From: Octopus vulgaris
Taxonomy: Eukaryota
NCBI GenBank assembly: GCA_951406725.2
Contig: OX597820.1
Location: 3,596,001 to 3,660,000, forward strand
Length of the DNA stretch: 64,000 nucleotides
Direction of reading: 5' to 3'
The notes under the pieces were generated by a model. It saw nothing but the letters and a program-made list of their open reading frames with translations. It did not search any database and was not told the origin of the DNA. The position numbers and the translations under genes are program-made. Shown here in pieces: positions 10,184 to 10,300 of this stretch. Every line of letters begins with the position of its first letter. The stretch's first letter is position 1.

Positions 10184-10292
10184 TTTCAGTTGGAAAATCA
10201 TTTCATGAACCTTGTTATTGGAAGATCCGAATTTCATTCTAGTTGTGTTAACAATTTAATCTTGGGTTGAGCTCATAAAACTTCTTTCTCCA

Positions 10293-10300
<8 letters not shown>
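10184..10300 (-). pseudogene. Degenerate C-terminal half of a Polycomb-type SAM domain, out of frame in the terminal exon
   Basis: Phase-0 translation [38 protein letters not shown] fits the SAM pattern IDG...T..D....MKxGP..K....I..LK. Confidence 0.65.

Follow-up and report, generated by a model that had tools for sequence, protein, structure and literature searches.

The Drosophila protein Sfmbt, of the PhoRC complex, combines an FCS finger and four MBT repeats with a SAM domain (PDB 4c5e and 5j8y). According to the accessible text of PMC4863741, the end-helix surface of this SAM domain binds the mid-loop surface of the Scm SAM domain, and the domain is required for Polycomb repression and connects PhoRC with PRC1. 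The same text describes Drosophila Sfmbt without its SAM domain as a stable protein that rescues repression poorly and has some function left. Binding to YY1/Pho needs the GWCA clamping motif, as described in the accessible part of PMC3828522. Mammalian MBTD1 and L3MBTL2 appear without a SAM domain in the accessible part of PMC9451159, which places them in PRC1.6 and TIP60-linked networks. The presence of a SAM domain in Sfmbt is often read as a difference between flies and vertebrates. A literature search covering titles and the beginnings of abstracts returned no published report of Sfmbt SAM loss in the Octopus lineage, which the supplementary gene-family tables of cephalopod genomes may mention, and nothing for Sfmbt combined with mollusc and SAM domain.

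Here we describe the Sfmbt ortholog in a stretch of 64,000 nucleotides from Octopus vulgaris (the window), in which the second half of a SAM domain lies decayed just beyond the stop codon. We consider it likely that a skipped phase 1-to-0 exon left Octopus Sfmbt without its SAM domain, and we predict that the protein does not bind Scm via SAM.

The octopus gene and its last splice junction

The exact matches of protein P0003 define 18 exons in the window, to which a terminal exon is added. The parts of the gene considered below are as follows (window coordinates).

10293..50991, minus strand: Sfmbt/MBTD1 ortholog with an FCS finger and four MBT repeats, 719 aa (P0003)
10820..10984, minus strand: penultimate exon, phase 1 to phase 1
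10301..10819, minus strand: present last intron, 519 nt, GT-AG, its junction seen in contigs of runs X5 and X10
10293..10300, minus strand: coding part of the terminal exon, entered in phase 1; it finishes a Gly codon and adds His and then TGA
9209..10292, minus strand: 3' UTR up to the contig limit, in the X5 and X10 contigs

The best protein matches of the gene are MBTD1-like. The FCS finger and the four MBT repeats are present, as PF21319 and PF02820 match P0001 and the MBT exons lie in the window, and the sister protein P0009 matches the four MBT repeats of PDB 4c5i and 4c5e in full. The SLED domain was not found at this locus. In a tree of 29 proteins, built with the C-terminal tails removed and with no paralog outgroup, the Octopus gene falls together with the Sfmbt proteins of molluscs and arthropods and with chordate MBTD1.

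The penultimate exon (10984-10820, minus) has the first base of a Gly codon at its end, and from the acceptor at 10302-10301 the spliced frame runs to the TGA at 10295-10293. One contig each from X5 and X10, which belong to two studies, joins 10820 to 10300 and extends to 9209. The runs are taken to be RNA, none being on record as such, and the X5 and X10 contigs skip three GT-AG introns. Four runs were compared over 8500-13000, two of which were informative since X7 and X17 gave no exon contig; assembled contigs drop rare isoforms and reveal no editing levels. When the penultimate exon was used as a query (17 candidates), its sole match was the O. bimaculoides MBTD1-like protein and its Octopus cluster, which consists of eight RefSeq and GenBank models from O. 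bimaculoides, O. sinensis and O. vulgaris. Four of the eight have EANIGH as their C-terminus and the other four stop earlier or run into an intron; a translated C-terminal SAM domain is absent from all eight, in all three species. The original prediction, made from the letters of the window, had the terminal exon entered in phase 1 and ending at once in G-H-stop through a junction from 10820 to 10300, and the contigs and models confirm that spliced Octopus Sfmbt ends in this way.

Several other features of the gene were recorded. An alternative first exon at 38752-38684 (minus), with which P0002, P0005 and P0008 start, produces an isoform that lacks the FCS finger. A 17-residue alternative segment in the second MBT region is found in P0009 and is missing from P0129, P0132 and every Octopus model. 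A very abundant transcribed interspersed repeat, probably of a SINE-like family, occupies 11500-11700 and is found in many other introns; each of the four runs covers it at a depth of more than 100000. The spliced contigs differ from the window at 12696, 9724 and 9365; the first of these is a synonymous third-position change from A to G on the gene strand, present in both runs, and could be a SNP or editing.

The SAM half in the terminal exon

Beyond the TGA, the terminal exon contains the following two features.

10184..10300, minus strand: fossil second half of the Sfmbt SAM domain, read in phase 0 from the terminal exon; almost all of it now belongs to the 3' UTR
10256..10258, minus strand: TAA in the frame of the fossil that differs by one base from a codon for Gln, the residue present in P0009

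Read in phase 0, the exon gives 39 codons with a single stop and without a net frameshift. A complete SAM domain is present in P0009, the closest ortholog (951 aa, 75% identical), and the fossil is identical to this domain at 22 of 39 positions (BLASTP E 2e-9 for the pair). There are two extra codons and 15 mismatches, 13 of which are accounted for by a single base change. An HMM built from 37 ortholog SAM domains, used with its second half, places the fossil first among 3654 six-frame window tiles at E 5.6e-6, the next non-overlapping tile reaching only E 4.2, and a back-translated nucleotide profile gives the fossil 63 bits, while none of 476 null tiles exceeds 27. The SAM domain of P0009 is of the Sfmbt type, its top PDB match being 5j8y_C with E 9e-22, versus 8e-11 for Scm. 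A search of the octopus genome with this domain returned the fossil first (E 0.002) and then other SAM families only, so that no second Sfmbt-type SAM was found among the nine candidates scored. In a DNA search for a second copy of the fossil, all seven other matches fell in its low-complexity part (query 213-272). The equivalents of four residues of the Scm-binding surface, D1177, K1186, G1188 and K1192 in fly Sfmbt numbering, are retained in the fossil.

By sequence comparison, 10300-10184 (minus) is confirmed as the decayed second half of an Sfmbt-type SAM domain. The original prediction had read the same phase-0 peptide, from the same acceptor and with the same TAA, as the second half of a Polycomb SAM domain, and had proposed an HMM search as a check. 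The outcome of such a search depends on the model. A Pfam scan of the fossil peptide alone gave no family at E up to 10, the fossil is not among the 50 PF00536 matches in the genome, and phmmer against the PDB with the peptide alone found no SAM domain. Since both Pfam and the PDB fail on the isolated peptide, a test with SAM_1 would have given a false negative, and it is the ortholog HMM that detects the domain. The two PDB matches that phmmer did return, to a viral export protein at E 0.5-0.8, were set aside as chance.

A probable missing exon

An intact first half of the SAM domain is absent from both the window and the genome, as searched with the ortholog HMM and by genome search. In P0009, 139 residues lie between GIDG and the Gly that aligns to the octopus donor. 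A phase-0 intron is located just before xIDG in four of the six Polycomb-type SAM loci examined in this genome, namely Scm, the genes on contigs C15 and C14 and a gene that we take to be SAMD1-like; the Ph-like locus L016 and locus L044 have no intron there. The acceptor is probably old, because four of six paralogous SAM loci share it. Pairs of gastropod isoforms diverge behind a Gly of this linker, at positions that are not exactly alike, and this split fits an old phase-1 donor. Hence, the missing piece was likely a phase 1-to-0 exon, a structure deduced from proteins and from paralogs in this genome. A metagenome scan for genomic DNA of orthologs gave a single locus, L071, a bacterial open frame that was rejected as a chance match.

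The likely course of events is as follows. In the ancestor, a phase 1-to-0 exon of some 139 codons, which likely coded for the linker and the first SAM half, would have been followed by the same phase-0 acceptor as today. Splicing likely came to leave this exon out of the transcript before the three sampled Octopus species split. The phase-1 donor now leads directly to the last exon, where a stop follows after two codons and the SAM half lies in another frame, as is seen in the junction, the stop and the fossil. A stop codon in the last exon escapes nonsense-mediated decay, and therefore the short SAM-less protein should be made. Its FCS finger and MBT repeats would keep their functions in methyl-lysine and YY1/Pho binding and, judging from Drosophila, PRC1 recruitment nucleated by the SAM domain of Sfmbt would be gone, so that octopus Sfmbt would act more like vertebrate MBTD1/L3MBTL2. 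As to the exon itself, we lean towards a loss of its 3' end and donor, with the remainder decaying inside the 519-nt intron. The pertinent features of the intron are these.

10365..10520, minus strand: probable decayed remnant of the skipped exon, covering the end of the linker and the SAM lead-in; weak
10620..10762, minus strand: possible 5' part of the skipped exon, recognized by eye and tested only within whole-intron tests; speculative
10462/10463, minus strand: polymorphic 14-nt indel inside the probable remnant, from contig X10-3

The outcome for the protein would be the same if the exon had been deleted cleanly and the matches in the intron were due to chance, which we regard as a possible, if less probable, history. 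Several searches of the intron without signal agree with it. The score of a plain protein alignment was reached by 29 of 150 and 26 of 60 shuffles, that of a local nucleotide profile by 47 of 476 tiles, and the first-half SAM HMM had no hit in the intron among the 3654 six-frame window tiles. In a codon pair model, the helix 1-2 part of the SAM domain gives no signal in the intron, and the UTR half scores about 55 bits versus 2-8 bits for the intron. However, a weak signal is what a linker should give, because the still-coding penultimate exon itself reaches only about 14 bits in the same model.

Clean deletion is also at odds with a co-linear signal in alignments anchored at the acceptor, which were devised after motif matches had been seen by eye. 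The motifs DL-x-L-x-G, S-x-I-x-C and LSLTA occur in the remnant in the same order as in P0009. A simple anchored profile came near significance in one of three settings, where 3 of 150 dinucleotide shuffles and 25 of 238 tiles scored as high, and was not significant in the other two. Over three settings the codon pair model gave the intron 1.7-7.7 bits. As many bits were reached by 1-3 of the 238 tiles, by one of the 17 other acceptors and by 0-2 of the 100 shuffles. In the setting that best fits the penultimate exon the intron scores 6.1 bits, which was reached by 6 of 382 acceptor-like ends, by none of 35 other stretches of P0009 and by none of 500 residue shuffles; 11 non-cephalopod orthologs fall below zero in this setting.

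The second argument against clean deletion comes from a variant. Contig X10-3, which retains the intron (window 10288-10804; depth 5.6 versus 140 for the spliced contig), differs from the window by five substitutions and the 14-nt indel, and the intron is thus polymorphic. The anchored alignment, blind to this variant, had placed a 20-nt gap at 10464/10463, where X10-3 has its 14 extra bases. Adding these bases gains about 3 bits, a rise equalled in 1-5 of 200 letter shuffles and at 5-11 of 200 random positions, and two motifs then share one frame, 24 codons apart versus 27 in P0009; the five substitutions of X10-3 cost about 3 bits. With p about 0.002-0.02 for the anchored signal, the intron probably holds a decayed remnant of the exon and not the scar of a clean deletion, weak as this signal is. 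Elsewhere in the intron, a CAG ending at 10718, 102 nt from the donor, resembles a vestigial acceptor with a branch-like CTGAC at 10760, and an LKI match to P0009 shares its frame. The segment YCLQSFTKQ (about 10455-10429) was considered as the last part of the first-half exon, followed by an inactive donor; this reading was dropped, as co-linear alignments put the pre-SAM linker there.

The original prediction that no first-half exon is present in the intron is therefore correct for a working exon, and a decayed one is probably there; similarly, its proposal that loss of the exon put the SAM domain out of frame stands in that a phase 1-to-0 exon is no longer used, although the exon probably decayed in place.

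An improbable variant of the history has an ancestor without an intron before GIDG, in which a new acceptor arose in one long terminal exon and turned its 5' part into intron. LSLTA is indeed in the GIDG frame, 33 codons upstream versus 39 in P0009, a tblastn alignment runs through (query 3-82), and the intron is as long as 417 coding bases and a further 102 taken together; this history leaves unexplained the intron at the same place in the paralogous loci, and the last 60 nt of the intron look like an ordinary pyrimidine tract and give no SAM signal.

It is very improbable that octopus still makes a working SAM domain or SAM half through a minor isoform, A-to-I editing or read-through. Cephalopods recode much of their RNA, rare forms are hidden by contigs, and the fossil frame has only one stop and no net frameshift over its 39 codons. 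However, there is no intact first half to join, conserved Leu, Gly and Pro residues of the SAM domain are replaced in the fossil, and the TAA at 10258-10256 has no variant in the two contigs that cover it. Editing of the UAA, which had been put forward as worth checking, cannot restore the domain, since splicing enters the exon in a different frame and there is no first half. An alternative exon encoding an intact SAM domain, which would have overturned the prediction, was found neither in the window nor in the genome, and the Octopus models agree. Finally, an assembly or annotation artefact, of the kind suggested by short SAM-less isoforms in species that keep the domain (Babylonia X2 versus X1, Rhipicephalus X7 versus X2), is refuted for Octopus by the X5 and X10 contigs, which match the window letter for letter with no difference listed in 10184-10300, by the agreement of the models of three species and by 18 runs from six studies, in which all nine sampled words of 10170-10300 are present.

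Loss of the SAM domain among orthologs and in known systems

The loss of the SAM domain can be placed on the tree. Octopus is sister to P0009 with support of 100/100, inside the molluscs and apart from the chordates. All ten members of the P0009 cluster, two named members of which are presumably cuttlefish, judging from the accession series, have the whole SAM domain, as do 39 of the best 45 non-Octopus hits (P0009-P0053). These comparisons support an ancestral Sfmbt SAM domain in molluscs, whose orthologs had been expected to carry one. Since Octopus lies inside the molluscs and apart from the chordates, its loss is independent of theirs, as had been proposed for vertebrates. The P0009 tail used as a homolog query matched P0009 alone among 5388 candidates, and no argonaut, cirrate, vampire squid or nautilus protein was identified with this or the penultimate-exon query; the loss is therefore not dated further.

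The Octopus loss is not unique. Models without a SAM domain are also those of Haliotis (3 of 3), its sister Gigantopelta (3 of 3; support 100/99) and the chiton Liolophura (2 of 2), as well as all 15 listed Branchiostoma models from a cluster of 23; in all of these the absence is known from annotation alone. The SAM-less non-Octopus models are P0010, P0151, P0152, P0014, P0153, P0019, P0154, P0155 and P0048. Abalone, Gigantopelta, chiton and amphioxus are possibly further independent losses. On the chordate side, the models place the loss across chordates, amphioxus included, so that the absence noted earlier for vertebrates is indeed a separate loss, but a wider one, and further mollusc models share the condition. 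The chiton model ends in G-H-M-D, which is reminiscent of the G-H end in octopus.

The octopus genome has other MBT genes on contigs C14 (three MBT repeats), C19 (two MBT repeats and SLED; Scm) and C15 (four MBT repeats and SLED; SFMBT1/2-like by its architecture), and open-frame SAM exons were found for each of them. In the C15 gene (L067/L068, G000:C15:15866001-15886000) both SAM exons are open. This 4MBT-SLED-SAM paralog could stand in for the lost SAM domain and perhaps relieves the loss. Octopus Scm keeps all nine contact residues named in PMC4863741; this surface serves other SAM contacts too, and its conservation says little on compensation. Near the 3' end of Scm, the first kilobase of G000:C19:54020001-54030000 (L070) is a tandem array of units of about 20 nt.

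A recent loss within cephalopods, with an intact sister lineage and a fossil that can still be read, means that the SAM domain of Sfmbt is dispensable in invertebrates too, and provides a close pair of lineages for asking how PRC1 finds its targets without it. We may speculate, with considerable doubt, that the domain was dropped at least four times (in chordates, Octopus, abalone with Gigantopelta, and chiton), each time as a switch away from the fly type of Polycomb recruitment, its role passing to the SFMBT1/2-like paralog or to other routes. If this were true, octopus would be the case in which the remains can still be seen, and octopus and squid would form a natural pair for the study of Polycomb retargeting.

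Of the known systems, Drosophila Sfmbt is the ortholog of the octopus gene by the tree and the 4MBT match. Octopus shares with it the GWCA motif and the serine of LPSNF, both retained, and the fossil keeps the four residues of the Scm surface. The two differ in that the SAM domain is translated in fly and not in octopus, and in that the Ser before VGWCA in fly is a Pro in octopus, as in MBTD1. Vertebrate MBTD1 and L3MBTL2 resemble the octopus protein as FCS and 4MBT proteins without a SAM domain, in the accessible part of PMC9451159; their loss is separate, whereas in octopus the SAM domain is still readable beside the stop. The engineered Drosophila Sfmbt-deltaSAM has the octopus architecture and, in the accessible text of PMC4863741, is a stable, partial repressor in fly. 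Unlike it, the octopus form is fixed in wild species, and octopus also has a 4MBT-SLED-SAM gene with an intact SAM domain. By analogy with this fly SAM-deletion mutant, from which the functional effect is deduced, octopus Sfmbt likely resembles MBTD1 and would have ceased to nucleate PRC1 via SAM.

The mechanism of the loss appears to be of a known kind, recurrent among animals. Loss of a C-terminal domain by exon skipping or intronisation, with conversion of coding sequence to UTR, is a general mechanism, and octopus Sfmbt shares with it the frameshifting splice change, the stop in the last exon and the decayed coding sequence in UTR and, probably, intron.
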